Origin: Escherichia coli O127:H6 str. E2348/69
GTDB lineage: Bacteria; Pseudomonadota; Gammaproteobacteria; Enterobacterales; Enterobacteriaceae
DNA length: 64,000 bases
Assembly (NCBI RefSeq): GCF_000026545.1
Contig: NC_011601.1
Reading direction: 5' to 3' (one strand)
Under the pieces are notes generated by a model, which was given only the letters and a program-made list of their open reading frames with translations, was not told the DNA's origin and did no database searches. Every line of letters starts with the position of its first letter. The first letter of the stretch is position 1. Positions 377-49,670 of this stretch are shown in pieces. The position numbers and the translations under genes are program-made.

Positions 377-406
377 TTGCTTTCTAACGTGAAAGTGGTT
401 TAGGTT
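377..406 (+). promoter_or_regulatory. Probable his operon promoter (-35 TTGCTT, -10 TAGGTT-like)
   Basis: TTGCTT at 377-382 followed about 17-18 bp later by TAGGTTAAAA, roughly 40 bp upstream of hisL; position consistent with the classical his promoter. Confidence 0.45.
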
Positions 407-444: not shown

Positions 445-495
445 ATGACACGCGTTCAATTTAAACACCACCATCATCACCATCATCCTGACTAG
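445..495 (+). CDS. hisL: his operon leader peptide (16 aa, 7 consecutive His codons)
   Basis: ATG 445, TAG 493-495; translation MTRVQFKHHHHHHHPD; followed by attenuator hairpin. Confidence 0.93.
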   Translation: MTRVQFKHHHHHHHPD

Positions 496-557
496 TCTTT
501 CAGGCGATGTGTGCTGGAAGACATTCAGATCTTCCAGTGGTGCATGAACGCATGGGA

Positions 558-594
558 AAGCCCCCGGAAGATCACCTTCCGGGGGCTTTTTTAT
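558..594 (+). terminator. his attenuator, rho-independent terminator hairpin plus U-run
   Basis: GC-rich inverted repeat AAGCCCCCGGAAG...CTTCCGGGGGC followed by TTTTTTATT, between hisL and hisG. Confidence 0.88.
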
Positions 595-640: not shown

Positions 641-1540
641 ATGACAGACAACACTCGTTTACGCATAGCTATGCAGAAATCCGGCCGTTTAAGTGATGAC
701 TCACGCGAATTACTGGCGCGCTGTGGCATTAAAATCAATCTTCACACCCAGCGCCTGATCGCGATGGCAGAAAACATGCCGATTGATATTCTGCGCGTGC
801 GTGACGATGACATTCCCGGTCTGGTGATGGACGGCGTGGTAGACCTTGGGATTATCGGCGAAAACGTGCTGGAAGAAGAGCTGCTTAACCGCCGCGCCCA
901 GGGTGAAGATCCGCGCTACTTTACCCTGCGTCGTCTGGATTTCGGCGGCTGCCGCCTTTCGCTGGCAACGCCGGTTGATGAAGCCTGGGATGGCCCGCTC
1001 TCCTTAAATGGTAAACGTATCGCCACCTCTTATCCTCACCTGCTCAAGCGTTATCTCGACCAGAAAGGTATCTCTTTTAAATCCTGCTTACTGAACGGTT
1101 CTGTCGAAGTTGCGCCGCGTGCCGGACTGGCGGATGCGATTTGCGATCTGGTTTCCACCGGTGCCACGCTGGAAGCTAATGGCCTGCGCGAAGTCGAAGT
1201 TATCTACCGCTCGAAAGCCTGCCTGATCCAGCGCGATGGCGAAATGGAAGAATCCAAACAGCAACTGATCGACAAACTGCTGACCCGTATTCAGGGTGTT
1301 ATCCAGGCGCGCGAATCAAAATACATCATGATGCACGCACCGACCGAACGCCTGGATGAAGTCATCGCCCTGCTGCCAGGTGCCGAACGCCCAACTATTC
1401 TACCGCTGGCGGGTGATCAACAGCGCGTAGCGATGCACATGGTCAGTAGCGAAACCCTGTTCTGGGAAACGATGGAAAAACTGAAAGCGCTGGGTGCCAG
1501 TTCAATCCTGGTCCTGCCGATTGAGAAGATGATGGAGTGA
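641..1540 (+). CDS. hisG: ATP phosphoribosyltransferase
   Basis: ORF track 602-1540; true ATG at 641 gives [17 protein letters not shown]...; first gene after attenuator. Confidence 0.95.
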
Positions 1541-19513: not shown

Positions 19514-20000
19514 CCTTTTTATCTAAACCAATAACAGCACTTGGATCATGATTAAAATAAGCTCGGCTGTTAGCGTGAACATTGTTACTGGCGAGCAGCG
19601 CGTCCGGCGTCAGCCAGCGGTAATCGTCATGCTGCTCATCCGGCAGTAACAGCTCTTCTTCCGCTACCCTGAAGCGAAAACCGAGCACCACATAGTGAGT
19701 GGTGAAATCCGTGCCGGAGAAGTTGTCGTCATAAAAGTGCTGCCAGACACCGTAAAACTGGCCTGCTGTTATCTGCAGACGCAGCCCCAGTTCCGCCATC
19801 GTCAGCCGCTCAAATGCGGCTTCCAGCGTTTCGTCTTTCTGCACGCGCCCTCCCGGCACAAACCAGTAACCCTGCGCCGGGCGGTTGGTTCTTTTGCCAA
19901 GCAGAAACTCGCCGCGACTGTTCTCGACAATAAAGTCGAGAGAGACAAGCGGAGTGGAGCGCACTACCGTGGCAAAGTCTTCCTGACGTAAAAACATCAT
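19497..20000 (-). CDS. gmm: GDP-mannose mannosyl hydrolase (Nudix), O-antigen copy
   Basis: 167 aa [13 protein letters not shown]...; Nudix box [23 protein letters not shown]; matches the colanic copy closely except for the C-terminal ~18 residues. Confidence 0.9.
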
Positions 20001-20965
20001 TACCCCCGAAAGCGGTCTTGATTCTCAAGGAACCACTGGTAAGTGCTGGCAAGCCCCGCTTCCAGTGAGATTTCGTGATACCAGCCAAGCTGATGCAGGC
20101 GCGTCACATCCAGCAGTTTGCGCGGCGTACCATCCGGTTTACTGGCATCAAAAACCACCCGACCTTTGTAACCCACCACTTTGGCGATGGTTTGCGCCAG
20201 TTCACGGATGGTGCAGTCAACGCCCGTGCCGACGTTAATGTGCGACAACATCGGCTGGGTGTTTTCCAGCCAGACTTCGTGCGCCAACTCCATCACATGA
20301 ATGCTTGCCGCCGCCATATCATCGACGTGCAGAAATTCGCGCATCGGTGTACCGCTGCCCCACACCACCACGTCCGGTGCATTCTGTGCCGTCGCCTCGT
20401 GGAAGCGACGCAGCAATGCAGGTATCACATGGGAGTTACTCGGGTGGAAGTTGTCATGCGGCCCGTACAGGTTGGTCGGCATGACTGAGCGGTAATCGCG
20501 TCCGTACTGGCGATTGTAAGATTCGCACAGTTTGATCCCGGCGATTTTGGCAATAGCATAAGGCTCGTTAGTCGGCTCCAGCGTGCCCTTCAACAGCTCG
20601 CTTTCTGCCATCGGCTGTTTTGCCAGTTTCGGGTAGATACAGGACGATCCAAGAAACAGCAGTTTGTTCACGTCGTTCTGATGCGCGGCGTGAATGATGT
20701 TGCTCTCAATCATCATGTTCTGGTAGATGAAATCCGCCGGATAGGTGTTGTTGGCAACAATGCCGCCCACTTTCGCCGCCGCCAGATAGACCTGGTCAAT
20801 GCGTTCGCTGGCAAAGAAATCATGCACCGCGCGGCTGTCCAGCAGGTTCAGCTCGTCGCGGGTGCGTAATACCAGTTCCACATCACCGCGCTGTTCGAGC
20901 TGCCGCCTGATGGCAGAACCGACCATTCCGCGATGGCCAGCGATAAAAATGCGTTGTCTACTCAT
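20000..20965 (-). CDS. fcl: GDP-L-fucose synthase, O-antigen copy
   Basis: 321 aa; protein identical to the colanic copy at 38376-39341. Confidence 0.95.
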
Positions 20966-20967
20966 GC

Positions 20968-22089
20968 TTATGACTCCAGCGCGATCGCCACGTCGTAGCC
21001 GTGAGATTTCAGCAGAGAGTGTTTTTTCGCCGCTTCGAGGTCATTAGCCACCATTTCAGACACCATCTCTCTGAGGGTGATTTCCGGTTTCCAGCCCAGT
21101 TTTTCGTGCGCTTTGGTCGGGTCGCCGAGCAGCGTTTCAACTTCAGCCGGACGGAAGTAGCGCGGATCAACCTTAACGATTACATCTCCAGGTTTAACTG
21201 CTGGAGCATCCTCACCATTAACAGAAACCACTATCCCCTTCTCATCTACACCTGTGCCTTCAAAACGCAGTTTGATTCCGACTCGCTCCGCCGCCATTTC
21301 CACGAACTGACGCACGGAGTACTGAACGCCGGTCGCGATGACGAAATCTTCCGGCTGTTCCTGTTGCAGCATCATCCACTGCATTTTTACGTAGTCTTTG
21401 GCATGGCCCCAGTCACGCAGGGAATCCATATTGCCGAGGTACAGGCACGATTCCAGCCCCTGGGCGATGTTTGCGATTGCGCGGGTGATTTTGCGGGTAA
21501 CGAAGGTTTCGCCGCGGCGCGGGGATTCATGGTTGAAGAGAATACCGTTACAGGCGTACATGCCGTAGGATTCGCGGTAGTTAACGGTGATCCAGTAGGC
21601 ATACAGTTTGGCGACCGCATACGGAGAGCGTGGGTAGAACGGCGTGGTTTCTTTCTGCGGAATTTCCTGCACCAGACCGTACAGTTCAGAAGTGGAAGCC
21701 TGATAAAAACGGGTTTTCTTTTCCAGACCGAGGAAGCGGATCGCCTCCAGCAGGCGCAGCGTACCCATCGCATCGACGTCAGCGGTATATTCCGGTGACT
21801 CAAAAGAAACCGCAACGTGACTCATTGCGCCCAGGTTGTACACTTCATCCGGCTGCACTTCACACAAAATGCGCGTCAGGTTGGAGGTATCTGTCAGATC
21901 GCCATAATGCAGATGGAATTTCGGGTTGCAGGTGTGCGGATCCTGATAAATGTGATCCACGCGCTCGGTGTTGAATGACGATGCACGACGCTTAATACCA
22001 TGCACCTCGTAACCTTTTTCCAGCAGAAACTCTGCCAGGTAAGAACCGTCTTGTCCGGTTATGCCAGTAATGAGAGCGACTTTAGCCAT
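20968..22089 (-). CDS. gmd: GDP-mannose 4,6-dehydratase, O-antigen copy
   Basis: ATG at 22089 gives [18 protein letters not shown]...; ORF track begins at an upstream TTG (22119). Confidence 0.93.
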
Positions 22090-22115
22090 TTTACATTTCC
22101 TGTTCTTAAAAATAC

Positions 22116-23132
22116 TCAACCTAAAATAATGCTTTTATATGCTGAAGCATAGTTCTCGATAACAAATTTCCCGGAGGCACGAATTGCCTGTTCCCGATAA
22201 TTTTCATAGTCATCGAATATTTTATCCAATTTATATCCAATGTCGTCTTCAGTATTTTCCACAAGTAACCCATTACCCTCAATTAATTCAAAACATCCGC
22301 CCACATCACTTAACAGGAGTGGTATTGCAGCTGTGTGAGCCTCAAGGCCTGACATAGGCAAACCTTCACTATCGGATATCAGTGAAAATAAATCATACTC
22401 ATGATAGTTATAAAAATTATTGACCTCACCCAAAAAATGAATATTTTCACATTCACTGAATTGTTTCTTCAATGATTCTAACCTTTCCCCCCCTCCTACG
22501 ATATGGAGGCTATACTGGGGCTTTTTCGATATTACATTCGCTAACAACTCGGGGCGCTTAGGGTGTGTTAACCTACCAACAAACAGAACCTTATACTGGA
22601 GTTGTTTATTATTACATCTCGGCATCTGAGGCACTGAATTCGATACTGTGATTATCTTTGGTTCTTTTATACCAATATTCTCAATTGCCTTTTTTTCATC
22701 ACTTTTGGAAACACACCATATAACATCAGTTAATAAAGAAAGGTATTTTTCCACAATGCAAAAAATTGATTTTAGGCGACCACCATTATATAAACAAGAC
22801 CATCCATGCGAAACATAAATACATTTAAAGTCGACTAGTAATCGAACTAACCTGGCATAAACTCCGGCATTAGCAGAACTTGCTATTAACGTTGAAATGT
22901 TATTTTCTTTTAAAATTTTTCTCAATTTAAACAATGTAAGGAAGTCAAAATATTTTTTAATACCTGGTATGACAAAAACTCCGGCAAAGACATCTTTATG
23001 TGTGAGCCATCCTTCTTCAGATGTAATAAGAAATATATTACATTCCTCTTTAATAAGGTTAGATATTTCATTTACCCATGTTTGTGCACCACCAATTTCT
23101 GATTTTGTAACAATAAAACCAACATTTTTCAT
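22116..23132 (-). CDS. GT4-family glycosyltransferase (O-unit)
   Basis: 338 aa; GT-B fold features and a C-terminal EX7E-like region; AT-rich. Confidence 0.7.
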
Positions 23133-23150
23133 ATATCAAAATTCCAAAAA

Positions 23151-24170
23151 TTATTTTTTATATCCATTTGGATTGTTTGTTTGCCAACGCCATACATCTT
23201 CGATCATTTCTTTCAATTTTTTTTCCGCTTTCCAGGAAAGCTTTTTATGTGCTAAATCAGCAGACGCCCATGACTCCGCAACATCCCCCTCACGTCTATT
23301 ACAAATAGCAACAGGTATACTCTTTTTAGTGACTATCTCAAACATTTTTACAATCTCTAAAACAGAATAACCTTGACCAGTGCCTAAATTAAAAGCTTCA
23401 TAATTGACATCATTTAAAAACATATATTCTAATGCTTTAACATGCCCTTTAGCCAAATCACAGACATGTATATAGTCTCTTACTCCTGTACCATCTTTAG
23501 TTGGATAATCGTTGCCATAAATATTTAATACAGGAAGTTGATTTTGTGCAACTTTAGATATATAAGGAACCAGATTATTAGGAATCCCGTTAGGATTTTC
23601 ACCAATCATCCCGGACTTATGTGCTCCGATTGGATTAAAGTAACGCAGTGCAATTACTGATTTATTATTATCACTATCACAATAATCACTCAAAATTATT
23701 TCTATTATAAATTTCGATGTCCCATATGGGTTTGTAGTTTCACCAATTCGTCTATCTTCCGTATGGGGAGGGATACTGTTATTCCCATAAACAGTAGCAG
23801 AAGAGCTAAATATCATTTTATTAATGTTATATCTCTTCATGCATTCAAGTAATACTAAAGTTCCACCAACATTATTAGAATAATACTCTAAGGGCTTTAA
23901 CTTAGACTCACCTACAGATTTTAACGATGCAAAGTGAATTACAGCATCGATATGGTGTCTTGAAAAAATCTCATCAAGTAGATTTTTATCACGGATATCA
24001 CCTTGATAAGAAATAATTTTCTTATTAGTTATTTGCTCTACTCTTTTTAATGATTCTATAGAGGAATTGACAAAATTATCTATCGAAACGACATCATGAC
24101 CATTATTAAGTAACTCAAGTATGGTATGGGATCCAATATATCCTGCACCGCCTGTTACGAAAATCACCAT
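23151..24170 (-). CDS. UDP-hexose 4-epimerase (GalE/Gne-like); first gene of O-antigen cluster
   Basis: ATG at 24170 gives MVIFVTGGAGYIGSH...; YGTSK catalytic motif; ORF track extends upstream to a TTG at 24239. Confidence 0.85.
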   Translation of the reverse strand: MVIFVTGGAGYIGSHTILELLNNGHDVVSIDNFVNSSIESLKRVEQITNKKIISYQGDIRDKNLLDEIFSRHHIDAVIHFASLKSVGESKLKPLEYYSNNVGGTLVLLECMKRYNINKMIFSSSATVYGNNSIPPHTEDRRIGETTNPYGTSKFIIEIILSDYCDSDNNKSVIALRYFNPIGAHKSGMIGENPNGIPNNLVPYISKVAQNQLPVLNIYGNDYPTKDGTGVRDYIHVCDLAKGHVKALEYMFLNDVNYEAFNLGTGQGYSVLEIVKMFEIVTKKSIPVAICNRREGDVAESWASADLAHKKLSWKAEKKLKEMIEDVWRWQTNNPNGYKK

Positions 24171-24199
24171 ATAAACCTCCTTTACCATGAGGATTGAGA

Positions 24200-24245
24200 G
24201 AAAAACACACGCTACCGCCCTTGGCTTAACAGTTACCAACTCACT
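24200..24245 (-). promoter_or_regulatory. JUMPstart region with ops element (RfaH-dependent antitermination) in O-antigen operon leader
   Basis: Plus-strand CACGCTACCGCC at 24208-24219 is the reverse complement of the ops consensus GGCGGTAGCGTG; lies between galF and the first O-antigen gene. Confidence 0.8.
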
Positions 24246-24479
24246 GAAAATGAATCATAGGTACTAAGCATTTAATACTTTTCACTATTTTCCAATTGTC
24301 TAACCAAACGAAGTCAGATACAAGGAAAATCTATGTCCGAGCGATACTTGCGGTAACTTATTGTTATTAAATACTTTAAATAAAAGACAGGAACATTCTT
24401 ATAATGTAAGCATCTCTGCTTTTGAATGTTCACTGCCGTTCTATTTTTATTCAATCCACCATATATGGATGATTAATTT

Positions 24480-25373
24480 TTATTCGCTTAACAGCTTCTC
24501 AATCCCTTTACGGAACTTCGCCCCTTCTTTCAGGTTGCGTAGTCCATACTTCACAAACGCCTGCATATAACCCATTTTTTTACCGCAGTCGTAGCTGTCG
24601 CCGGTCATCAGCATGGCATCAACGGACTGTTTTTTCGCCAGCTCGGCAATGGCATCAGTCAGCTGAATACGTCCCCATGCACCAGGCTGAGTACGTTCAA
24701 GTTCCGGCCAAATATCGGCAGAAAGCACATAGCGACCAACGGCCATGATGTCTGAGTCCAGCGTCTGCGGCTGATCCGGCTTTTCGATGAATTCAACAAT
24801 GCGGCTGACTTTACCTTCACGATCCAGTGGTTCTTTTGTCTGAATGACTGAGTATTCAGAGAGCTCACCCGGCATACGTTTTGCCAGCACCTGGCTGCGT
24901 CCCGTTTCATTGAAGCGCGCAATCATGGCAGCAAGGTTGTAGCGTAGCGGGTCGGCGCTGGCGTCGTCGATCACAACGTCTGGCAGCACCACGACAAATG
25001 GATTGTCACCAATGGCAGGTCGCGCACATAAAATGGAGTGGCCTAAACCTAAAGGTTCACCCTGACGCACGTTCATAATGGTCACGCCCGGCGGACAGAT
25101 AGATTGTACTTCCGCCAGTAGTTGACGCTTCACGCGCTGTTCAAGGAGAGATTCTAATTCATAAGAGGTGTCGAAGTGGTTTTCGACCGCGTTCTTGGAC
25201 GCATGAGTTACCAGGAGGATTTCTTTGATCCCTGCAGCCACAATCTCGTCAACAATGTACTGAATCATTGGCTTGTCGACGATCGGTAGCATCTCTTTGG
25301 GTATCGCCTTAGTGGCAGGCAACATATGCATCCCAAGACCCGCTACCGGTATAACTGCTTTTAAATTCGTCAT
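24480..25373 (-). CDS. galF: UTP-glucose-1-phosphate uridylyltransferase paralogue
   Basis: 297 aa [43 protein letters not shown]... Confidence 0.95.
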
Positions 25374-25615
25374 TATTTTCCTACCTCTAAGTGGCTGATA
25401 GTGCGTAAATTATTGCCATAGGTTAGCCAAACGGTATGGCTATATACCATAGCTTAGTTCCGCATAACTTTGATTAAACCTTACGATAACACTACACACC
25501 ATCAGCATCTGGGTTACTCGGATTACTCGGAAATCCACATACTGATAATTTAATCAGTACCTCTTTCCGAATAATCGTAGTCCAACCTGGTCCTTTTTTC
25601 TCTGACTCGTCTGCA

Positions 25616-26611
25616 TTACTCAGAAACAAACGTTATGTCGTCTTTTTTGGCATGAACGAATTCATACTGCAGAGTTCGATCCAGACCTTGCGACAGCGTA
25701 TACGGTGCCACAAAACCTGAAGAATGCACTTTCGTTGCGTCAAACTGTGTTGTTGCGCAGAATTTTTTCACGCGCACAGAGCTGACAGCGTATTTTTTGC
25801 CAGTAATTTTGCTCAGGATATCAAAGCAATATCCACCCAGCATTCCTAGTGGGTAAGGCAAGTGCATAGAAGGGATCTTTTTGTTTAGGCTTTGTTCAAC
25901 TTCAGCAACCAACTGGTTCATATTCAGGTCTGGCTTATCAACGTAGTTATAAACCTCGTAACCTGCGGCAACATTCTTCAGTTTGTACTTGATAAACTCA
26001 ACAATGTTTCCAACATAAGCCATGGACTTATAGTTAGTCCCTGCGCCCACCATCATAAACTTGCCGCCAGCGATCTGTTTCAGCAAGTTATAGACGTTAC
26101 CGCGGTTCCGTTCACCGAAGATAACGGTAGGACGGATGATGGTTAATGAACGTTCTGTTGGTGCTTTGTTATACCATTCACGCAGCACTTCCTCTGCCTG
26201 CCACTTACTTTTGCCGTAGTGGTTGAAAGGATCGTGTGGATGGTTTTCGTCAGGGTTGTGTTTGTTCAAACCATAAACAGCAACGGAACTGGTAAAGATG
26301 ATATTTTTAACGCCATTTTTTTCCATGGCCGCCAGCACATTGCGGGTACCCTGAACGTTGACATCATAATAGAGAGAAGTAGGGCTGACGTCATCGCGGT
26401 GTTCCGCTGCCAGTAGTACAACAGTGTCAAAACCGGCTAACGCCTGGTCGAGTGCCTGTTGATCACGAACATCGCCAATCTGTGTGATTTCTGGATAAAA
26501 GTGGCTCTGCTGTTTGTCCAGGTTCTTGATATTAAAGTCAGCAATTGCCGTTTCAAGTAGTCGGGTTCCTACGAATCCGGAAGCTCCTATGAGCAAAACG
26601 TTATCGTTCAT
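25616..26611 (-). CDS. gne: NAD-dependent epimerase (Gne / Z3206-like UDP-GlcNAc or GlcNAc-P-P-Und 4-epimerase)
   Basis: 331 aa MNDNVLLIGASGFVGTRLLE...; YGKSK motif; sits between wcaM and galF, where some E. coli lineages carry gne. Confidence 0.8.
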   Translation of the reverse strand: MNDNVLLIGASGFVGTRLLETAIADFNIKNLDKQQSHFYPEITQIGDVRDQQALDQALAGFDTVVLLAAEHRDDVSPTSLYYDVNVQGTRNVLAAMEKNGVKNIIFTSSVAVYGLNKHNPDENHPHDPFNHYGKSKWQAEEVLREWYNKAPTERSLTIIRPTVIFGERNRGNVYNLLKQIAGGKFMMVGAGTNYKSMAYVGNIVEFIKYKLKNVAAGYEVYNYVDKPDLNMNQLVAEVEQSLNKKIPSMHLPYPLGMLGGYCFDILSKITGKKYAVSSVRVKKFCATTQFDATKVHSSGFVAPYTLSQGLDRTLQYEFVHAKKDDITFVSE

Positions 26612-26768
26612 AAATCACTTTAGTCTGGTTGTTACGTAAGAAACACAAGATAAAGATGAGTACCTTCCCTGAGTAGTCAATGCTGCCCAGCCCCAGCTTT
26701 AACAGTTAGTGTGAGGATTATAATCTTTTAGAACATTATATCCAGTAAGTTTATGAATGGTCGCAAAT

Positions 26769-28163
26769 CTACTCCCTCCGTTCTGGCAATCTAAAGTTAA
26801 TCTTTTCCACATTAACAATGTGGTGATTAACTCTGTCGATATCGACGGAGCTTTGCCCTTTTTCATTCACCGCATGAACATTTGCAAGTGACAGCAGTGT
26901 TTCTTTTTTCGCCATAAAGACGCCGCGAACGTCTTTGCGCATGTCGAAGTTCATGCTCAATGCGGGTCCAACTGAGGATTCCTGCATCACCTTGATATTT
27001 CGCATAAAAAGATGTTGCGGTTTGTTGTGTAACTCCAGCGACGCACGCTTCATCTCAATGTTAGTCAGCGCCACAAAGGAGACAGCATTCCCGGCAGAGA
27101 TTTGGATACCGCGCAATTTATAAGCAAGATGGGTGTTATCCATTTGAATATTATTCACTCGGAAATTTTGCGGTATTGAGAGATATTTGCCTTTAATTAC
27201 CCCATAGCCGATTAACATCCCAGCGCTATTAATCATTTCAATATTATCAATCACGAAATTGTCACAACCGTAAATAGCAACTGTCGCGTTATCAATGCCT
27301 GCTTTCTTGCTGAAATCCGGCGTGATATTGCGGGCTTTGATATTACGAATAACAAAATGTTTACCATTTTCAACATGGATCAACTGCCGACAATCCGATC
27401 CCGTGATATTCGCCACGACAAAGTTTTTCACTGCCTGGTCTTCCGGGTAGTTATTATCGTAGGTACTTCCCGCAAGGCCTATGCCGATACCCCAGTTGAT
27501 TTTGCCGTTGGTACAGTTGATGCGCTCGATGACATGGTCAGATATCAAAATATCACGGTCGTTAATCGCCACGTTCCATTCAATGGCGTCGCCCTGTAAA
27601 TCACTAAATTTACAGTTGGTGATGTTGGCACCGATAATCTGGTTATGAAATCCCTGGCGTAAGATGGCGTAATTAGCGTGGCTAACGGTCAGGTTATCGA
27701 TGGAGAGGTTACGCATTACTCGTTTGTTTTTGCCGCCGATATAAATCTGCGTTACCGGACCAAAGCCGCTCATCGTCAGCCCTTTGATGGTGCAGTCAGA
27801 GCCACGCACATCCAGGGTGATGTTATGCATACTGCCACCCTCCTCCCCTGTCACCTGGCTGCTGTCCTGTAAGACAAATCGCCCTCTGCCGTTGCCGCGC
27901 AGGCTTCCAAGGATGTGTAACGTTTTACCTGCAGGAATGAAGATGCCGGTGTTGATATTGTCGCAAACCAATCCGGCAGGCACGACGACCGTTTGCCCTT
28001 CGCCGAAGGCTTGTTTAAATGAGGCGATCCAGTCGTGTGGGTTGTAGTCGTTAATGTTAACGCTTTGTCGGGCGGGAAGTGCACGGGCGAAAGGGGTATG
28101 GAGGAAGGCAAGCGCGGAGCTTGCCGTCAGGAAGGTGCGTCGGGAGAGTTTTTTAAATGGCAT
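26769..28163 (-). CDS. wcaM: Colanic acid biosynthesis protein WcaM
   Basis: 464 aa with twin-arginine signal ([15 protein letters not shown]); last gene of colanic operon. Confidence 0.9.
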
Positions 28164-28173
28164 ACGTTCTCCT

Positions 28174-29394
28174 CTATAAAGCCTGCAGCAAGCTGGCGAG
28201 TTCTCGATTAATCACCTGCTGGTTAAAATCGTGTTCGACTTTTTCGCGCGCACGTTTGACGACCGGAGCCAGTTCGTCGGTGTTCAGTTGGCTAAACGCC
28301 GCCAGTCGTTGCGCCAGTGCGCGAGCATCGTTCTCAGGCACCAGCCAGCCGGATTTATCGGCCTCCACCAGTTCTGGTATTCCGCTATGCAGAGTTGAAA
28401 CAACCGGAATGCCGACCGCCATCGCTTCCATTAGCGCCACCGGAATACCTTCCATATCGCCATCCGCACCCGTTATCGATGGCAACAGGAAGACATCCGC
28501 GTCGTCGAGCATCGCTTTCACTTCATGGCTCGGTTTAAAGCCCGGCATCTCTACCACATCTTCCAGTTGATATTGTTCGATGAGCGTGCGCAGGCGTCGT
28601 TCCCACGGGCCAATGCCGAGGATGCGATAGCGAAATGCCACGCCCTGCTCTTTCAACTGCCGGCAGGCTTCGATCGCCACATGCAGGCCTTTTTTCTCGG
28701 TTAAGCGTGCGACGGAGATGATTTCCAGCGGCGTTGCGGGCGCTTTCACCGGACGCGGGCTAAAGCGCGTCATGTCCACGCCCATACGCGATACGGCGAT
28801 TTTTTCCCTCGGACAGCCCATTTTTTGCAGCCTTCCGGCCCACAAATCGCTTATCGGTAACATCAGGTCGCCACGGCGAAACAGTTGTTGATATTCGGGA
28901 GTGTAGTGGTTGAGCACGTCCCGACTGGAGATATCAATACCGTGGAAGATAGTGGCAATTTTGCCGCGAATGACACCCAGTTCGCGTAGTTTTGCTGCGG
29001 TTACCCCCGCAGGGCCAAAATGAGCGATGAACACATCGGCGCGAAACGGTGTTGCGACCTGACCACAAATGGCAGACAAAATCAGGTTCCGCGACTCGGC
29101 GCCATAGCGTTTGAGGTTGAGCGCCTGCCAGGTATTTTTACGATGAATGCCGCGTAACGTCTGGCTGGCGCGGTGGCGCAGTTTCGCCACTTTGCCCGTA
29201 GGTTCGTCCTGTAACCAGCGGGTTCTGGCAGCAAGGTTGTATTTCGTCCATGCCGCGTGGGTGTTCTGGGTGTCGCCTTTTTGCAGCGCGACAATCTCCA
29301 CCTCAAAGCCCATATCAATAAACGCGGTAATTTGATTGAGGACGAAGGTTTCCGACGACAGCGGAAATTTCAGTAAAAAGAAGCCGACCTTCAT
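28174..29394 (-). CDS. wcaL: Colanic acid glycosyltransferase (GT4)
   Basis: 406 aa; position and family match. Confidence 0.9.
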
Positions 29395-30671
29395 TTCACC
29401 TCCCCGATGCGTTCAAGCACAGATTGCACCATCTGCATTCCTGTATGACGCTCACGACTGACAGCTTCGTTAAGTCGTGCGTTCAGCGCCGGAAGCTGGC
29501 CTAAGGTATCCGCAACCATCGCTTGCAGGCTGCCGTCCAGTAAATGACGGATATCAATTGCCATCTCTGGTAGCCCCAGTTGTTGCATAATCCCGGCGGA
29601 TTTATGTTCATAGTTGATGGCAATCGCCGGAGTAGCAAAGTTCATTGAGATAATGGCTGAGTGCAGGCGCGTACCGACGGTGAGTTCACAGGCACCGAGA
29701 ATTTTGCCCATTTCCAGATCGTTGAGTTCATCCATCACCACGTGGTAACGGGCAGGATCGCTGATGTGCTGGCGCAGGTTGAGCGCCACCATGCGGTCGT
29801 CTTTGTTATAGCTGTCGATGCCCGTACAGGTGGAGAGCGCAATAACCTGATAGCCTTCGTCGAGAATGCGATTGACCACCCCGGCAAAGGCTTTTTCATA
29901 CGCTTGTTGAGTGGTGCCGAGACGTTTGTCGAACGGTGCCAGTTCGCGCAGGGTAATTGCCACCGTTTTCTGTTGTGCGGCAACGTCCAGCCAATGTTGA
30001 ACGGCATAGCTGGCGGTGAAGTCTTCTGTGTGGTGATCGACCAGCCACGCGGTATCGACGCCATGTTCCACTTTTGCGGTGGTGATATTGCTGCGTTTCA
30101 TCAAATCAAGGCTGACCGATTCGCGCAGGATCAGCGCGTCACAGTGACCAAAAACGTAGTTCGCCAGTTGGTTAAATTGCTCATCCTGGAACGGGCCGAC
30201 GCTGTGACCAATCATAAACAGCGGCTTTTTCGCCATGAAAGTGCAAAGCGCATGTTCAAACTGCGGAACGCCATAGAGATCGACAAAAAACGATCCGCCG
30301 ACCTGAATAATGGCGTCGTAACCTGACAGCAGGCGCACGAAGTCGGTGAATCCCTGGGCGATGGCGATATTACGCAGCTTGCCAGTGTCGGTGACGCGTG
30401 AGAGCAATACCTGGTGCTGATAGCGGCGACGGAGGACTTTTTTAACGCGCCCGACAACGCCCGCCGCGCTGTTGTGTTGTTTCATTTGCAGGAACAGCGG
30501 ATCGCCCATTACCGGGCGGTTGAGCAGCCAGGAAGAACTGACCGGATAGCGGCTCATCACGTCCACTTCGGCATGTGGATTGAGGATGTTGATGGCATCA
30601 AGTAAGCCGCGCAAGATGGCGCTGTCGCCACGATTGCCGCAAGTGTGGTTGCCCAGAATAAGTAATTTCAT
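29391..30671 (-). CDS. wcaK: Colanic acid pyruvyl transferase
   Basis: 426 aa; position and family match. Confidence 0.9.
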   Translation of the reverse strand: MKLLILGNHTCGNRGDSAILRGLLDAINILNPHAEVDVMSRYPVSSSWLLNRPVMGDPLFLQMKQHNSAAGVVGRVKKVLRRRYQHQVLLSRVTDTGKLRNIAIAQGFTDFVRLLSGYDAIIQVGGSFFVDLYGVPQFEHALCTFMAKKPLFMIGHSVGPFQDEQFNQLANYVFGHCDALILRESVSLDLMKRSNITTAKVEHGVDTAWLVDHHTEDFTASYAVQHWLDVAAQQKTVAITLRELAPFDKRLGTTQQAYEKAFAGVVNRILDEGYQVIALSTCTGIDSYNKDDRMVALNLRQHISDPARYHVVMDELNDLEMGKILGACELTVGTRLHSAIISMNFATPAIAINYEHKSAGIMQQLGLPEMAIDIRHLLDGSLQAMVADTLGQLPALNARLNEAVSRERHTGMQMVQSVLERIGEVK

Positions 30672-30742
30672 TTTTTCCTCATAAATTTGGTGCCAGGTGA
30701 GGTTATGTTGTTGTTTTTATTGCCGGAGCCTAAAACAACCAT

Positions 30743-32221
30743 TCACCCCGCCCGTAAAAGCATTTTCATTTTTTCGCTGCGACAAAACTGACGCTTCACT
30801 TCCACCACCAACGAATGGCGCGACAGCACAATCATCACCACAAACGCCAGCACGCCCGCGGCTATTTGCACCGCCAGCAGCATCCCCAGCGCCAGTTGCC
30901 CTTTCAGCACAATGCCCAGTGCATAACTGACCACCAGCGTCGGCAGCGAGAGATAAAACGGCAGCCACAAACTCAGGATGTACTGGCGATAACTGGAACC
31001 AAGAACCGGTTTAATCATCACGAAGTAACTCAGAATGGTGTTGATAATCTGCACCAGCAGGAAACCGAGCGTGACGCCGATTGCGCCCGCCATCTGCCCA
31101 CCAATAACAATCGCCGGAATAAACAGAAATGTTTTGAATACGTTGAATTTAAAGCTGATATCGACCCGCGCTTTCGCCATCAGCAGCGAACCAATCGGGT
31201 TACCTACGGAGCGCAGCAGACCCACCACACACAGCAATTGCAGCACCGGAATAATGCTGTTCCACTTTTCGCCAAATACCAGCGGTACAAAGTTATTTGA
31301 CACCACCATCAGCCCGAGCAGCGCCGGAAAGTTGATAATCCCCACCACCGACAGCAGCTTGTAGAAGTTGACGCGCAGCTTTTCGGTATCGTCCTGAATT
31401 TTGGCGAATGCCGGAAACAACACACGGGTGATGATCGGGTTCAGCTTCATCGGCGGCACAACGGCCACGTTGTACGCCAGGTTGTATCCCCCTGCCACGC
31501 CCGCGCCGAGAATACGCGCCAGCACCAGCGTTGAAAGGTTGGTATTGAGATAGTTGATGATGCTGTCCGCCGTCAGCCAGGCACCAAAGCGTAAGTTCGG
31601 CGCAACAGACGCCAGCGAGAAATGCAGACCGGGGCGATAAATTTTCCGGCCAAAGTAGCCAAATAGCAGCGTTCTCACCGCACTATTGACCAGATAACCG
31701 AGGATCGCGGTCATCACCAGCGGCCAGAAATGGGCGCTAACCACTGTAAAAGTGAAGCCCGCCAGCACCGCGCTGGTTTCGATCATGCCGATTTTGTTGA
31801 ACTCCAGCTCCTTCTGCATCAACGCGCGGAACTGTTGCCCGTGGGGGATCACCACAAACGCCAGCGACAATGTTTTAATCAACGGTGCCAGGTCCGGGTT
31901 ATTCAGCACGTCGCCAATGGCATCACTCAACAAAAACACCGCCACGCACACCACAAGCCCCAGCCCGACGTTCAGCCAGTACAGCGTGGTGAGTTCCAGG
32001 TGGCTGATTTCTTTTCGCTGAATAATCGAGTTAGCGATACCGAAGTCAGAAAGCGTATCTGCCAGCGCGATGATCACCAGCGACACGGTAAGCAAACCGA
32101 ACTGGTGGTTGTCGATAATGCGCGCCAGCACGGTCATCTGCACCAGCCCGAGGCCGATGATGATCACCGTGGCAATCGCCGACCACTTCGCGCCGCTGAT
32201 GGTTTTTTCACGTAAGCTCAT
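30743..32221 (-). CDS. wzxC: Colanic acid repeat-unit flippase
   Basis: 492 aa polytopic membrane protein. Confidence 0.9.
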   Translation of the reverse strand: MSLREKTISGAKWSAIATVIIIGLGLVQMTVLARIIDNHQFGLLTVSLVIIALADTLSDFGIANSIIQRKEISHLELTTLYWLNVGLGLVVCVAVFLLSDAIGDVLNNPDLAPLIKTLSLAFVVIPHGQQFRALMQKELEFNKIGMIETSAVLAGFTFTVVSAHFWPLVMTAILGYLVNSAVRTLLFGYFGRKIYRPGLHFSLASVAPNLRFGAWLTADSIINYLNTNLSTLVLARILGAGVAGGYNLAYNVAVVPPMKLNPIITRVLFPAFAKIQDDTEKLRVNFYKLLSVVGIINFPALLGLMVVSNNFVPLVFGEKWNSIIPVLQLLCVVGLLRSVGNPIGSLLMAKARVDISFKFNVFKTFLFIPAIVIGGQMAGAIGVTLGFLLVQIINTILSYFVMIKPVLGSSYRQYILSLWLPFYLSLPTLVVSYALGIVLKGQLALGMLLAVQIAAGVLAFVVMIVLSRHSLVVEVKRQFCRSEKMKMLLRAG

Positions 32222-32222
32222 A

Positions 32223-33617
32223 TCAATATGCCGCTTTGTTAACGAAGCCTTTGAATACCGTCAGGAAAACGATTTTGATATCGAACCAGACGCTCCATTC
32301 GCGGATGTACTCAAGGTCGAACTCGACGCGTTTTTCCATTTTCTCCAGTGTGTCGGTTTCGCCGCGCCAGCCGTTAATCTGCGCCCAGCCGGTAATGCCC
32401 GGTTTCACCTTATGGCGCAGCATGTAGCCTTCAATGAGCTGTCGATACTGTTCGTTATGCGCCACCGCATGCGGACGCGGACCGACAATCGACATCCCGC
32501 CAGTCAGCACATTGATAAACTGCGGCAATTCGTCCAGCGAGGTGCGGCGCAGAAAGTTCCCCACTTTGGTGACGCGCGGATCGTTCTGCGTCGCCTGAGT
32601 CACCACTTTGTCGTTCTCCATCACTTTCATGGAACGGAACTTCCACACTTTGATCGGCTTGCCATCCATGCCATAGCGAGTCTGGCGGAAAATAACCGGC
32701 CCTGGCGAACTGAGTTTCACCGCCAGCGCAATACAGCACAGCACCGGGGAGATCAGCAGCAGAATAAGCGTCGCCAGCACAATGTCTTCCGCACGTTTGA
32801 GCAGGCGGTTAACCCCGGAAAGCGGCGTGTCGTAAAGCGGCACCACCGGAACGCCGTTCATCTCTTCGAGACGTGAATGGAGAATGTTGAAGGTAAAGAC
32901 GTCGGGGATCAGCAGCACCGAACAGGTGGTGTCCGCCAGTTGATGGACCAGTTTTTTCACTCGCGCGCCGTCGCACATTTGCATCGCGATATAGACGTTA
33001 TGAATCTTGCCCGCTTTCGCATCCTCGACCAGCTGTTGCAGATTGCCCGCCCAGTCGTTAGAAACGCCACCCGGTTTCGGGTCGTGGTAAACGCCCACCA
33101 CTTCAAACCCTAACCACGGCTGATTACGGAAGCTCTCCATCAGCATTTGTCCGGCGGCTAAATCTCCCGCTACGGCGACCATACGCTTGTTATAGCCATG
33201 ATTACGCAGCCAGCCCGCCCCAATGCGAATACATGAACGGCAAACCACCAGTCCGATACTGGTCAGCCCATACCACGCCAGCCAGATTTTCAGTTGCGTG
33301 TCGAAATCATTATTGAACGCCACCAGTCCGGCGCTGAAAATCACGCTTAAGGTCCAGTTTTGTAGCAACAGGGCAAATTCTGTCGCTGCCCGAACACCGC
33401 GCCATGAGCGATAAAAATCGGTGATGCCGCCCAGCATCTGGAACACCACCAGCGTAATCAACGCCACCAACAGGTGCATGTAGAGGAATGACAGTCCGCT
33501 CACTTCGCAAACCAGCCATAGTCCGGCAAACATGATGGTGATATCTGAAAAGCGTTGCACCATAGAGATTAACGATGCATTGGTTTTCGCTCGCTCGCGC
33601 TTTTTTAGATTTGTCAT
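32223..33617 (-). CDS. wcaJ: UDP-glucose:undecaprenyl-phosphate glucose-1-phosphate transferase
   Basis: 464 aa; N-terminal TM helices and C-terminal polyisoprenyl-phosphate hexose-1-P transferase domain. Confidence 0.92.
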   Translation of the reverse strand: MTNLKKRERAKTNASLISMVQRFSDITIMFAGLWLVCEVSGLSFLYMHLLVALITLVVFQMLGGITDFYRSWRGVRAATEFALLLQNWTLSVIFSAGLVAFNNDFDTQLKIWLAWYGLTSIGLVVCRSCIRIGAGWLRNHGYNKRMVAVAGDLAAGQMLMESFRNQPWLGFEVVGVYHDPKPGGVSNDWAGNLQQLVEDAKAGKIHNVYIAMQMCDGARVKKLVHQLADTTCSVLLIPDVFTFNILHSRLEEMNGVPVVPLYDTPLSGVNRLLKRAEDIVLATLILLLISPVLCCIALAVKLSSPGPVIFRQTRYGMDGKPIKVWKFRSMKVMENDKVVTQATQNDPRVTKVGNFLRRTSLDELPQFINVLTGGMSIVGPRPHAVAHNEQYRQLIEGYMLRHKVKPGITGWAQINGWRGETDTLEKMEKRVEFDLEYIREWSVWFDIKIVFLTVFKGFVNKAAY

Positions 33618-33671
33618 CGTTGTTCCTGTTATTAGCCCCTTACCCGCAGTGGGGTAAGGGAAGATCCGACA

Positions 33672-35042
33672 TTACTCATTCAGCAACGTCAGCAGAGTTC
33701 GCGTTCGCGCTTCCATCAGCGGCACATCACCGCGCGATTCCACATTCAACCGCACCACCGGTTCGGTGTTGGAGGTGCGCAGGTTAAAGCGCCAGTCGGC
33801 AAAGGTCATGCTGATGCCATCGGTACGATCCACCGCCAGCGCCTCACGGCTAAAATGCTGTTCGACGCGATTAATCGCCTCAACGGGTTGCGCCAGTTTG
33901 CTGTTGATCTCACCGCTTGCCGGAAACGCCGCCATCCGGTCGCGCACCAGTTCGCCCAGCGTTTTTCCTTTCAGGCACAACAGTTCGGCTACCAGCAGCC
34001 ACGGGATCATGCCGCTGTCGCAGTAAGCGAAATCACGGAAGTAATGGTGAGCGCTCATTTCGCCACCGTAGATGGCGTCTTCCTTGCGCATCCGTTCTTT
34101 AATAAAGGCGTGTCCGGTTTTCGACATTACCGGGGTGCCGCCTGCGGCAGTCACCACATCAATAGTGTTCCAGGAGAGACGCGGATCATGGATGATCTTC
34201 GCGCCGGGATTTTTTTCGAGGAACGCTTCTGCCAGCAGGCCGACAATGTAGTAGCCCTCGATAAACTGCCCTTTTTCGTCAAACAGAAAACAGCGGTCAA
34301 AATCGCCATCAAAGGCAATGCCCATATCCGCGCCGTGTTTGATGACCGCATTGCGGGTGTCGTCGCGACATTCCGGCAGCAGCGGGTTAGGAATACCGTT
34401 GGGGAAATTGCCGTCCGGTGTGTTGTGTACTTTGATTAATTCCACGGGCGCGCCGAGGGCTTTAAAGCGGGCTTCGATGGCGTCCACCACCGGACCCGCT
34501 GCGCCATTCCCGGAGTTAATCACCAGCTTGAGCGGCGTGAGGTTTTTGACGTTGATATAACCGAACAGGTGATCAACGTAAGCGTCACGCAGATTAATTT
34601 TCTGATAGTGACCGCGTTTGGATTCATCAACGGGAGGGAAGTCGTTGGCTTCTGCCAGGCGCTGGACGTCGCGCAGTCCGGTATCACCGCTGATCGGGCG
34701 AGCCCCTTCGCGCACCAGCTTCATGCCATTGTAATCCATCGGATTATGGCTGGCGGTAACTTCGATGCCGCCATCCACGCCGAGATGGAACGTGGCGAAA
34801 TAGATCTCTTCGGTGCCGGACATGCCAATATCCAGCACATCGACGCCCGCATCCTGTAAACCTTTCGCCAGCGCCAGTTTTAAGGTTTCGCTGGTGAGAC
34901 GAACATCACCGCCTAACACAATGGTTTTCGGTTTGAGAAATTCGCCATAGGCGCGACCAATGCGCCAGGCAATATCTTCATTCAGTTCTTCGCCTAATTT
35001 CCCGCGAATATCATAGGCTTTAAAGCAGGTTAATTTTTTCAT
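33672..35042 (-). CDS. cpsG: Phosphomannomutase, colanic acid copy
   Basis: ATG at 35042 gives [16 protein letters not shown]...; ORF track extends upstream to 35090. Confidence 0.95.
33740..35042. repeat. manB direct repeat, copy B (cpsG, colanic acid locus)
   Basis: See copy A. Confidence 0.8.
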
Positions 35043-35132
35043 GTCGTTACCCTTTTTCAGGCAATAGTTGGCCCTGACCGAAGCGGCCAATTTTGTTTTT
35101 GTCGTTATTTACACCGCGGTTTCGCATTCATT

Positions 35133-35233
<101 letters not shown>

Positions 35234-35234
35234 T

Positions 35235-36671
35235 TTACACCCGTCCGTAGCGATCCGCGAAGCGCACCACATCATCCTCTTCGAGATAAGAGCCGGAGCG
35301 CACTTCAATTAAATCGAGCGGAATTTTCCCCGGGTTTTCCAGGCAGTGCGTCGCCCCCAGCGGAATATAAATGGACTCGTTTTCACCAAGCAGTTTGATA
35401 TCACCGTCAATAGTGACTTTTGCCGTTCCCGCAACCACTACCCAGTGTTCCGCGCGGTGATGGTGCATCTGTACTGACAAGCCTTCGCCCGGTTTCACGG
35501 TGATGCGTTTCACCTGGTAGCGGTCGCCCGCGTCGATAGAGTCATATTTGCCCCACGGACGATACACTTCGCGATGTACCCGATGCTCATGACGACCATC
35601 GGCTTTGATCTGCTCGACCACTTTTTTCACATCCTGCACCGCGTTACGGTCGGCAATCAGCACCGCATCTTTGGTCTGCACCACTACCAGATCTTTCACC
35701 CCGACGGTGGTGACCAGGCCAGATTCGGCGTATACATAGCTGTTTTCAGTTTTGTGATTAATCACATCGCCGTGGCAAACGTTGCCCTCGGCGGTGTGGG
35801 CGCTGATCTCCCATAATGAAGACCAGGAACCGACATCGCTCCAGCCCGCATCCATCGGCACCACAACGGCATCTGCCGTACGTTCCATGACCGCGTAATC
35901 CACCGACTCTTCCGGGCAGGCCAGAAACGCTTCTTCATCCACGCGAATAAAATCGAGATCCGGATCGACGGCGCTCATCGCTTTTTCACAGGCGTCGAGA
36001 ATATCCGGGCGATATTTTTTCAGTTCTTCGAGATAGCGTCCGGCGCGGAACAGGAACATGCCGCTGTTCCAGTAATATTCGCCGCTTGCCACATAGGCCT
36101 GGGCGGTTTCCAGATTCGGTTTTTCGACAAACTGCGCCACTTCAAAGGCCACCGTATCCTGCTCACCCGCAGACACTTCACCGCGACGTATATAGCCATA
36201 ACCGGTTTCTGGTAGATCCGGCACAATGCCAAAGGTCACCAGCTTGCCCGCTTCGGCATACGGCATGGCATTACGCACGGCGGCACGGAACGCGTCTTCA
36301 TCGGCAATCACATGATCCGCCGCCAATACCAGCATTAACGGGTCGCTCTCCGGGCTATGACGTTTTGCCGCCAGCGCCGCCAGTGCAATGGCAGGTGCAG
36401 TGTTACGCCCTGCCGGTTCGAGAATAATGTTCTCGGTGAGTTTGTTCAGTTGACGCAGCTGTTCCGCGACAATAAAGCGGTGCTGCTCATTGCAAATCAC
36501 CACCGGGCTTTCGCACTCCACGCCGTTCAGGCGACAGATGGTGGTTTGCAGCATGGTGAGATCGCCTTTCAGGCATAAAAACTGCTTGGGGTAAAGTACG
36601 CGGGAAAGCGGCCATAAGCGGCTACCAGAGCCACCTGCCATCACAACTGGATAGAGTTTCGACTGCGCCAT
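35235..36671 (-). CDS. cpsB: Mannose-1-phosphate guanylyltransferase, colanic acid copy
   Basis: 478 aa [23 protein letters not shown]... Confidence 0.95.
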
Positions 36672-36673
36672 AA

Positions 36674-37897
36674 TTATCCCCGAATATCATTTATAAATTG
36701 ACGTAACACGTTCTCTTTATCGAGTGTGCGTTCGGCATATTCACGTGCCACCGTGTTGTGTTTGGGCAGCAGGAGCGCCTGACGGATCCCCGCCACCAGC
36801 GCCTCGACCGATTCCGGTTCTACGCAAACCGCAATGCCCGGAAAGGTTTCGCAAAGCTGCCCCAGTTCTGTGTGGGCCTCTGCGGTAATCACCGCGTTAC
36901 CGCCTACCGCCAGAATATTGGTCAGTTTCGACGGCAATACGGCATCTGCCGCGCCGCGTTTTTGCACCACCAGATGGCAATCGCCCATCTTCAGCAGTGC
37001 GGGTAAAGCGTCATACGATTGCAGCGGGAAAAATTGCATGTTGCGCAGTCCACGCTGCTGCGCCATTTTTTCCAGCCGCGCTTTGCCGCCGCCCTGCCCG
37101 ACAATGGCAAAAATCAGCGGTTCATCGCGCAGACGATCGGCAGCTTCAATAACGTTTTCCAGCCCCTGCTTTTCACCAATATTGCCGGAGTAAAGAATGA
37201 TTTTTTTGTTATCCGGCAGGTCAAGCTGGTTACGAAGGGCGTCAACATCGGCATCTGCAACATGCTGAAAACGGGCAATTTCCGACCAGTTGGGGAAGAA
37301 GATGACGTTTTCCGCCGCCACGCCTTTTTCGATGGCTTTATTCATCATCGAACGCGAAATCGTGGAGACGTTATCGACGTTATGCAGTCCGCTACGTTCG
37401 AACGCCGTTGCCAGCTGTGCCACTTTGCCGCCTTTGCCTTTTCCGGCAAGGCCCAGCCCCAGCATGGCGTCCACTTCGTAATCCTGAATATGCAGCACGG
37501 TACGCGCACCAGAGAGCTTCGCCAGCAGGCGCATTCCCGGCGTGCAAAACAGCGTTGGCACTACGCCGATAATGCGATCCGGCTTCCAGCGACGTTGCGC
37601 CATCAGTGGAAAGAAACTGCTGACGGCAAAACTGCCGAGATGCAACAAGCGTTTCAGGGTGCTCGGCTGTTTTGGCACGTACAGCGGGCAGCGCCACACC
37701 GTGGCGGCCCCCTCTTCTCGTTTGTAGCGCCAGGCGGAATAGTTCTCACCCACCTGCCATTGCGGGTAGTAAGGCGGTGCGGTAATGACCCGCACCTCAT
37801 GACCTTGTGCCGCCAGCCATTCCACCATCTCGCCGGTGTATTTGCCGATGCCGGTTAACTCCGGCGAGTAGTTAATGCCGTAGACCAGTATTTTCAT
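36674..37897 (-). CDS. wcaI: Colanic acid glycosyltransferase (GT4)
   Basis: 407 aa. Confidence 0.9.
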
Positions 37898-38376
37898 AAT
37901 CCGGGTACTCCGGCACGCTTCTCAGCGAGAAAATAGGCGCGGCTGTTAGCGTGAACATCGTTACTGGCGAGCAGCGCGTCCGGCGTCAGCCAGCGGTAAT
38001 CGTCATGCTGCTCATCCGGCATTAACAGCTCTTCTTCCGCTACCCTGAAGCGAAAACCGAGCACCACATAGTGAGTGGTGAAATCCGTGCCGGAGAAGTT
38101 GTCGTCATAAAAGTGCTGCCAGACACCGTAAAACTGGCCTGCTGTTATCTGCAGACGCAGCCCCAGTTCCGCCATCGTCAGCCGCTCAAATGCGGCTTCC
38201 AGCGTTTCGTCTTTCTGCACGCGCCCTCCCGGCACAAACCAGTAACCCTGCGCCGGGCGGTTGGTTCTTTTGCCAAGCAGAAACTCGCCGCGACTGTTCT
38301 CGACAATAAAGTCGAGAGAGACAAGCGGAGTGGAGCGCACTACCGTGGCAAAGTCTTCCTGACGTAAAAACATCAT
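37894..38376 (-). CDS. gmm: GDP-mannose mannosyl hydrolase (Nudix), colanic copy
   Basis: 160 aa (wcaH); Nudix box present; tandem ATGs at 38376/38373. Confidence 0.93.
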
Positions 38377-39341
38377 TACCCCCGAAAGCGGTCTTGATTC
38401 TCAAGGAACCACTGGTAAGTGCTGGCAAGCCCCGCTTCCAGTGAGATTTCGTGATACCAGCCAAGCTGATGCAGGCGCGTCACATCCAGCAGTTTGCGCG
38501 GCGTACCATCCGGTTTACTGGCATCAAAAACCACCCGACCTTTGTAACCCACCACTTTGGCGATGGTTTGCGCCAGTTCACGGATGGTGCAGTCAACGCC
38601 CGTGCCGACGTTAATGTGCGACAACATCGGCTGGGTGTTTTCCAGCCAGACTTCGTGCGCCAACTCCATCACATGAATGCTTGCCGCCGCCATATCATCG
38701 ACGTGCAGAAATTCGCGCATCGGTGTACCGCTGCCCCACACCACCACGTCCGGTGCATTCTGTGCCGTCGCCTCGTGGAAGCGACGCAGCAATGCAGGTA
38801 TCACATGGGAGTTACTCGGGTGGAAGTTGTCATGCGGCCCGTACAGGTTGGTCGGCATGACTGAGCGGTAATCGCGTCCGTACTGGCGATTGTAAGATTC
38901 GCACAGTTTGATCCCGGCGATTTTGGCAATAGCATAAGGCTCGTTAGTCGGCTCCAGCGTGCCCTTCAACAGCTCGCTTTCTGCCATCGGCTGTTTTGCC
39001 AGTTTCGGGTAGATACAGGACGATCCAAGAAACAGCAGTTTGTTCACGTCGTTCTGATGCGCGGCGTGAATGATGTTGCTCTCAATCATCATGTTCTGGT
39101 AGATGAAATCCGCCGGATAGGTGTTGTTGGCAACAATGCCGCCCACTTTCGCCGCCGCCAGATAGACCTGGTCAATGCGTTCGCTGGCAAAGAAATCATG
39201 CACCGCGCGGCTGTCCAGCAGGTTCAGCTCGTCGCGGGTGCGTAATACCAGTTCCACATCACCGCGCTGTTCGAGCTGCCGCCTGATGGCAGAACCGACC
39301 ATTCCGCGATGGCCAGCGATAAAAATGCGTTGTCTACTCAT
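38376..39341 (-). CDS. fcl: GDP-L-fucose synthase, colanic copy
   Basis: 321 aa (wcaG); identical protein to the O-antigen copy. Confidence 0.95.
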
Positions 39342-39343
39342 GC

Positions 39344-49658: not shown

Positions 49659-49670
49659 CACGCTACCGCC
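49659..49670 (-). promoter_or_regulatory. ops element in the colanic acid (cps) operon leader
   Basis: Plus-strand CACGCTACCGCC is the reverse complement of GGCGGTAGCGTG; about 180 nt upstream of the wza start on the transcribed strand. Confidence 0.8.

Follow-up and report, generated by a model that had tools for sequence, protein, structure and literature searches.

A native histidine-operon attenuator with seven consecutive histidine codons upstream of hisG in Escherichia coli O127:H6 strain E2348/69

The element at positions 445 to 594 of the 64-kb stretch of DNA analyzed here (the whole stretch is referred to below as the window) is almost certainly the native attenuator through which ribosomes control transcription of the E. 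coli hisLGDCBHAFIE operon; the allele is that of strain E2348/69 (O127:H6). It is already known as the long-known control switch upstream of the histidine-synthesis genes, and the his leader is a textbook case of both ribosome-mediated attenuation and hairpin-dependent transcriptional pausing. The Rfam His_leader model (RF00514) matched positions 471 to 594 over its entire length (model positions 1 to 126 of 126) with a score of 129.6 bits (E = 3.5e-21; the gathering score of this model is 49 bits). Positions 300 to 700 of the window were 100% identical to three E. coli O127:H6/E2348/69 chromosomes, and the RefSeq annotation of the identical DNA lists hisL, a "His leader region," and hisG; the first of these is described there as "hisL: his operon leader peptide" (WP_001364200.1). 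The yefM-yoeB genes are located upstream of hisL and are divergent from it. The genes downstream of the leader, on the same (+) strand and extending to ~7.7 kb, are hisG, D, C, B, H, A, F, and IE; the terminator ends 49 nt before the hisG ATG (641). The coordinates of individual elements are given in Table 1.

The original prediction had delimited a native his attenuator at 445 to 594 and described it as a leader with seven consecutive histidine codons, followed by pairing segments and a GC-rich hairpin with a U-run. Translation of 445 to 495 bears out the codon run, the only such run in the window, and the repeat finder, folding, and the Rfam match all recover the segments and the hairpin downstream of hisL. 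The boundaries proved to be exact, the Rfam match likewise ending at 594. The assignment as a native attenuator is upheld by the Rfam match, the RefSeq annotation, the alignment with K-12, and the presence of every named element.

Table 1. Elements of the his leader region and other annotated features of the window.
Feature	Position	Strand	Description
Probable hisL promoter (hisLp)	377..406	+	-35 TTGCTT 377-382, 18-nt spacer, -10 TAGGTT 401-406
Inferred transcription start (+1)	414 (A)	+	Back-calculated from site positions in PMC10989985
hisL leader peptide gene	445-495	+	16 codons; translation MTRVQFKHHHHHHHPD, followed by stop TAG 493-495
A:B pairing	478..513	+	Rfam consensus helix 1, MFE fold; -12.1 kcal/mol
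his transcriptional pause signal	487..516	+	Hairpin CCUGA/CUAGUCUU/UCAGG 487-504, then 11-nt spacer
B:C pairing	495..522	+	GUCUUUCAGGC with GUGCUGGAAGAC; first helix of the antiterminated state; -12.3 kcal/mol
C:D pairing	514..537	+	CUGGAAGA/UCUUCCAG, 8-nt loop; Rfam, MFE fold, repeat finder; -9.9 kcal/mol
D:E pairing (antiterminator)	528..573	+	GAUCUUCC 528-535 with GGAAGAUC 566-573; -18.5 kcal/mol with interior
Single-base variant G555 (A in K-12)	555	+	D-E spacer, base of extended terminator stem
E:F attenuator, intrinsic terminator (predicted)	557..594	+	Stem 557-570/576-589, loop AUCAC 571-575, U-run 587-592
hisG (ATP phosphoribosyltransferase)	641..1540	+	First structural gene downstream of the attenuator
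JUMPstart elements (RF01707)	24208-24246, 49659-49697	-	Above Rfam gathering threshold
algC RNA motif (RF02929)	35047-35096	-	Above Rfam gathering threshold

The hisL gene reads ATG ACA CGC GTT CAA TTT AAA CAC CAC CAT CAT CAC CAT CAT CCT GAC TAG. Its regulatory codons are the seven consecutive histidine codons (CAY) at 466 to 486, in which CAC and CAT are mixed. When both strands of the 64-kb window were searched for runs of at least seven CAY codons, only this run was found; the next longest consisted of four codons, and the number of runs of at least seven expected by chance from the base composition was ~3.9e-6. A minus-strand open reading frame at 415 to 486 (MMVMMVVFKLNACHKNLCECLFN) was also considered and rejected as unsupported, being simply the reverse complement of the histidine codons.

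A run of seven histidines has the superficial appearance of an engineered His-tag or of a cloning remnant from a vector, and this appearance is all that speaks for such an origin, which we regard as practically inconceivable. The hisL gene is a free-standing gene of 16 codons that is not fused to any protein, it is found in its native yefM/hisL/hisG context, and its flanks contain no vector sequence. The pattern of CAC and CAT codons is the same in K-12. Moreover, the his leader region was found in 5423 of the 5426 complete E. coli genomes, and hisL is present at 76 other loci in Enterobacteriaceae and related metagenome-assembled genomes (MAGs). The original prediction had warned against reading the run as an engineered tag, and both its native yefM-hisGDCBHAFIE surroundings and its spread in E. 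coli genomes confirm that warning. The existing annotation is correct, and there is no reason to mark the H7 run as anomalous or engineered.

Segment A consists of histidine codons 5 to 7 together with the proline and aspartate codons, segment B is formed by sequence past the stop codon, and the D:E pairing occupies the 5′ arm of the terminator. Two mutually exclusive sets of pairings (A:B, C:D, and E:F versus B:C and D:E) are present, with the histidine codons overlapping segment A. An independent repeat finder recovered C:D as a perfect 8-bp repeat (514-521/530-537) and D:E as a 13-nt repeat with 85% identity (528-540/561-573). The minimum free energy of the 445 to 600 fold was -67.5 kcal/mol, corresponding to z = -7.9 against 200 dinucleotide shuffles.

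To mimic the ribosome, we masked the 5′ part of the leader and folded a nascent RNA ending at 575, so that segment F was not yet included. In the unmasked nascent RNA, A:B and C:D formed and E was left unpaired, so that it would be available to F, the configuration expected to lead to termination. A mask on the histidine codons (leader positions 1 to 45 or 1 to 48) gave B:C at 495 to 522 together with D:E, corresponding to read-through. With a mask reaching over the stop codon (leader positions 1 to 64), C:D re-formed and E was released, again corresponding to termination. The masked folds thus reproduce the classical switch in silico, and the alternative pairings are predicted to be energetically plausible for this sequence. 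Equilibrium folds are illustrative only; the informative ones are those of nascent RNA before segment F, yet their outcome changes with the mask and the allele chosen. In the equilibrium fold of the full transcript the terminator wins under every ribosome mask, and in the K-12 allele the minimum-energy nascent fold under the stop-codon mask is D:E, not C:D. The choice between the two states must therefore be kinetic and governed by the order in which the segments are transcribed, as the literature holds.

The terminator stem recovered by the repeat finder is a perfect 14-bp stem with a 5-nt loop. Its G+C-rich core hairpin (560-586) has a predicted energy of -23.5 kcal/mol, and the extended hairpin reaches -31.4 kcal/mol. 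The published his terminator likewise has a 14-bp stem, a 5-nt loop, and a U-run (PMC10989985), and the geometry is the same here. The pause site corresponds to U515, with G516 at +1 and G506 at -10 of the G-10 Y-1 G+1 consensus. The features of the hisL pause described earlier (PMC9291695) agree with those seen at 487 to 516, and the pause hairpin and pause site appear intact in the E2348/69 allele, as judged from its sequence. The pause signal was invariant in all 57 distinct enterobacterial leaders that we aligned (see below).

Attenuation at this locus has been described and tested experimentally in Salmonella and E. coli (PMC4046918, PMC9291695, PMC10989985), and read-through responding to charged tRNA-His has been shown for K-12 and Salmonella alleles (PMC4046918, PMC10989985). 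By analogy with the characterized locus, stalling, pausing, and termination in the present copy would proceed as follows. RNA polymerase would start at hisLp, at about position 414, transcribe hisL, and wait at U515, downstream of the pause hairpin, for a ribosome to load. When charged tRNA-His is scarce, the ribosome would stall on the seven histidine codons and cover segment A; B:C and D:E would then form, making E unavailable to F and allowing read-through into hisG. When tRNA-His is plentiful, the ribosome would reach the TAG codon and cover B, leaving C:D and E:F to form, and the 14-bp E:F hairpin with its U-run would terminate a leader transcript of ~180 nt. If the leader is not translated, A:B, C:D, and E:F would form, and termination would likewise be expected.

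The TTGCTT and TAGGTT hexamers are taken by us to be the his promoter hexamers on the basis of established knowledge of the his promoter. They lie downstream of an A/T-rich tract at 356 to 372, and all bases of hisLp are identical to K-12. A consensus scan for promoters and terminators called neither at the his leader. The scanner required 4 of 6 matches per hexamer, and the promoter was missed because each of the hisLp hexamers matches the consensus at only 3 of 6 positions. The terminator was missed because extension of the stem through AAA:UUU and G.U pairs consumes the T-run. These misses look like limits of the rules rather than absence of a promoter or terminator. The start at 414 was obtained from the DnaA boxes of the his leader, reported at +46 to +56 and +126 to +134 (PMC10989985), since these intervals correspond to sites with two mismatches to the DnaA box consensus at 459 to 469 and 539 to 547. 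The same work gives the length of the leader RNA as 180 nt (PMC10989985); counted from 414, such an RNA would end at 593, inside the U-run.

Two further features were seen upstream. The yefM-hisL intergenic region contains an unannotated, perfect 19-bp palindrome, TAAGAGGAC-A-GTCCTCTTA, at 294 to 312. With its arms separated by only 1 nt, it resembles a site for protein binding more than a hairpin in RNA. Just upstream of yefM (- strand), TGTACA hexamers are found at 178 to 183 and 190 to 195, 12 bp apart from center to center; this arrangement matches the YefM-YoeB operator palindromes.

The DnaA boxes bear on a different view of the leader, which Yao et al. put forward in 2023 as a "DnaA-dependent riboswitch" (PMC10989985). 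According to it, DnaA together with tRNA-His binds "rDnaA boxes" in the leader and sets the choice between A:B/C:D/E:F and B:C/D:E, so that termination needs a protein. The proposal draws on dnaA mutants in which hisG expression was altered and on in vivo enrichment of the leader RNA in RIP (PMC10989985), and sites named in that paper are indeed present here, at 459 to 467, 461 to 469, and 539 to 547. Each of these boxes, however, has two mismatches to the 9-mer consensus, and such sites numbered 1199 in the window compared to 1127 expected from shuffles. Since two-mismatch sites thus occur about once per 53 bp in the 64-kb window, close to chance density, their presence in the leader is uninformative. 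The putative fourth box (600-608) is absent from the two-mismatch scan because T605 (A in K-12) takes it from two to three mismatches. The authors themselves did not find binding in vitro (PMC10989985), and the classical model accounts for attenuation without a protein factor (PMC4046918, PMC10989985). Nothing in our analysis supports a DnaA-dependent riboswitch, and we consider it very unlikely compared to the ribosome-mediated attenuator.

For comparison with other species, genome contigs were scanned for seven histidine codons followed by Pro-Asp-stop. This yielded the 76 hisL loci mentioned above, which belong to Enterobacteriaceae and to a few MAG assemblies labeled only Proteobacteria; the genera named among them include Salmonella, Citrobacter, Enterobacter, Kluyvera, and Kosakonia, as well as Raoultella, Leclercia, Atlantibacter, Trabulsiella, and Mangrovibacter. 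The leader alignment, which included the window and K-12, contained 58 sequences, 57 of them distinct. Among the 57 distinct leaders, 98.6% of alignment cells were paired in the terminated state and 93.2% in the antiterminated state, compared to 34 to 57% in slid registers. For individual helices, the proportion of paired cells was 100% for A:B, B:C, and C:D and 99.1% for D:E.

A covariation test on the 57 distinct leaders gave no real support: one pair changed on both sides, and shuffles gave as many. The stems show almost no variation, in part because an exact hisL pattern had been used to gather the loci, so the test is uninformative, and the pairing of the stems across these leaders represents conservation only, not covariation. 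Variable positions were concentrated outside the helices: 12 of the 17 positions unpaired in both states varied, compared to 20 of the 80 that are paired in either (Fisher p = 5.6e-4). The only common stem polymorphism is A or G at 518, in segment C. Both partners present a U opposite it, so that the pair is A-U or G.U within C:D and U-A or U.G within B:C, the pattern that a doubly constrained segment should show.

The peptide is conserved as well. Its C-terminal part, VQFKHHHHHHHPD, hardly changes between genera, and residues 2 and 3 vary freely (TR, IS, KS, SR, NR, NS, and VR were observed). The near invariance from VQFK through H7PD could be taken to mean that HisL has a small-protein function of its own, for example, metal binding via the seven histidines, in addition to its role in cis. 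RNA constraint fully explains this conservation, however: the codons for histidines 5 to 7, proline, and aspartate are themselves segment A, and therefore a separate function of the peptide is not needed to account for it. The freedom of residues 2 and 3 also speaks against such a function, as does the finding that single-codon changes act through translation speed (PMC4046918). We consider a function of HisL beyond attenuation to be extremely unlikely. The length of the run is not fixed in every strain: in Trabulsiella odontotermitis TbOT1.10 (minus strand of L060, 1292-1350) hisL has ten consecutive histidine codons (MSVQFKHHHHHHHHHHPD), owing to a 9-nt in-frame duplication (CACCATCAT), and a second strain of this species (L062) has seven.

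Several other features of the window were recorded in the course of the analysis. The gmd-fcl-gmm genes occur twice, as a 2.5-kb direct repeat (19554-22089 and 37930-40465; 97.5% identical), one copy belonging to the O127 O-antigen cluster and the other to the colanic acid cluster. The 15.8 kb between the repeats (22090-37929), which contain 5′ O-antigen genes, a JUMPstart, and distal colanic acid genes, are absent from the RefSeq E2348/69 chromosome NZ_CP059840.2, and NZ_LT903847.1 matches the window at 100% across the repeat region. The gap in NZ_CP059840.2 has the appearance of recombination between the two repeats, either as a deletion or as a collapse in the assembly. One JUMPstart element heads the O-antigen cluster and the other the colanic acid cluster. 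Immediately upstream of an open reading frame at 33672 to 35090 (- strand) is the algC motif; the DNA of this frame is 94% identical to a gene annotated as cpsG in NZ_CP059840.2. An ISEc13 (IS4-like) transposase gene is present twice, with the same protein accession, at ~46.9 to 48.3 kb and 56.1 to 57.6 kb, corresponding to 1904885-1906258 and 1915461-1916834 in NZ_CP059840.2; one of the copies splits a diguanylate cyclase/MASE1 gene into two pseudogene fragments.

The closest well-studied relative of the attenuator is that of K-12 MG1655, whose hisL (b2018) occupies the same locus and has the same 16-residue peptide, codon choice, and segments A to F; the pause signal, the terminator, and the spacing to hisG are also the same as in E2348/69. 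The check named in the original prediction was to align the element with the leader of E. coli or Salmonella, and in the E. coli alignment 149 of the 150 bases within 445 to 594 were the same as in K-12 MG1655. The single difference is G555, which is A in K-12. Just outside this interval there are five further single-nucleotide differences, at 352, 373, 440, 605, and 637. The 5′ part of the leader (445-534) was found as an exact match in 4664 genomes, and the 3′ part (510-599) in only 4; G555 is therefore, in essence, near-private to the E2348/69 lineage. As a separate observation, a single complete E. coli genome can contain up to 6 copies of the 3′ half of the leader (510-599), which includes the terminator, and this half was found once on a plasmid.

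The predicted consequences of G555 are small. It turns an A-U pair into G.U, giving an extended terminator stem of -31.4 kcal/mol versus -32.3 kcal/mol, and it adds a predicted GGG:CCC mini-helix in the interior of D-E; overall, predicted energies shift by 1 to 2 kcal/mol in both states. The corresponding alignment column varies freely between species, and the variant is probably neutral. It is quite improbable that G555 and T440, the latter 5 nt upstream of the hisL ATG, shift the basal set-point of his attenuation in this EPEC lineage, and the direction of any such shift would not be predictable. Beyond this one lineage-private base change, the E2348/69 copy adds nothing to what is known of the his leader.

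The his leader of Salmonella enterica, the original model system (RF00514), has the same peptide, A to D segments, terminator core, and operon position, and differs by a few substitutions, which fall in the loops of C:D and E:F and in the D-E spacer. Its uninterrupted U-run is longer (TTTTTTTT, compared to TTTTTTATT in E. coli). In S. enterica subsp. arizonae and diarizonae the HisL peptide is the same, and the leaders differ by a few bases. The trpL, pheL, thrL, leuL, and ilvL leaders resemble the his leader in combining a short open reading frame rich in cognate codons with mutually exclusive hairpins, a pause, and an intrinsic terminator (PMC9291695, PMC10989985). Their regulatory codons are different, and their sequences are unrelated to the his leader. 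The his leader is described with six pairing segments (A to F), whereas the trp leader is usually given four.
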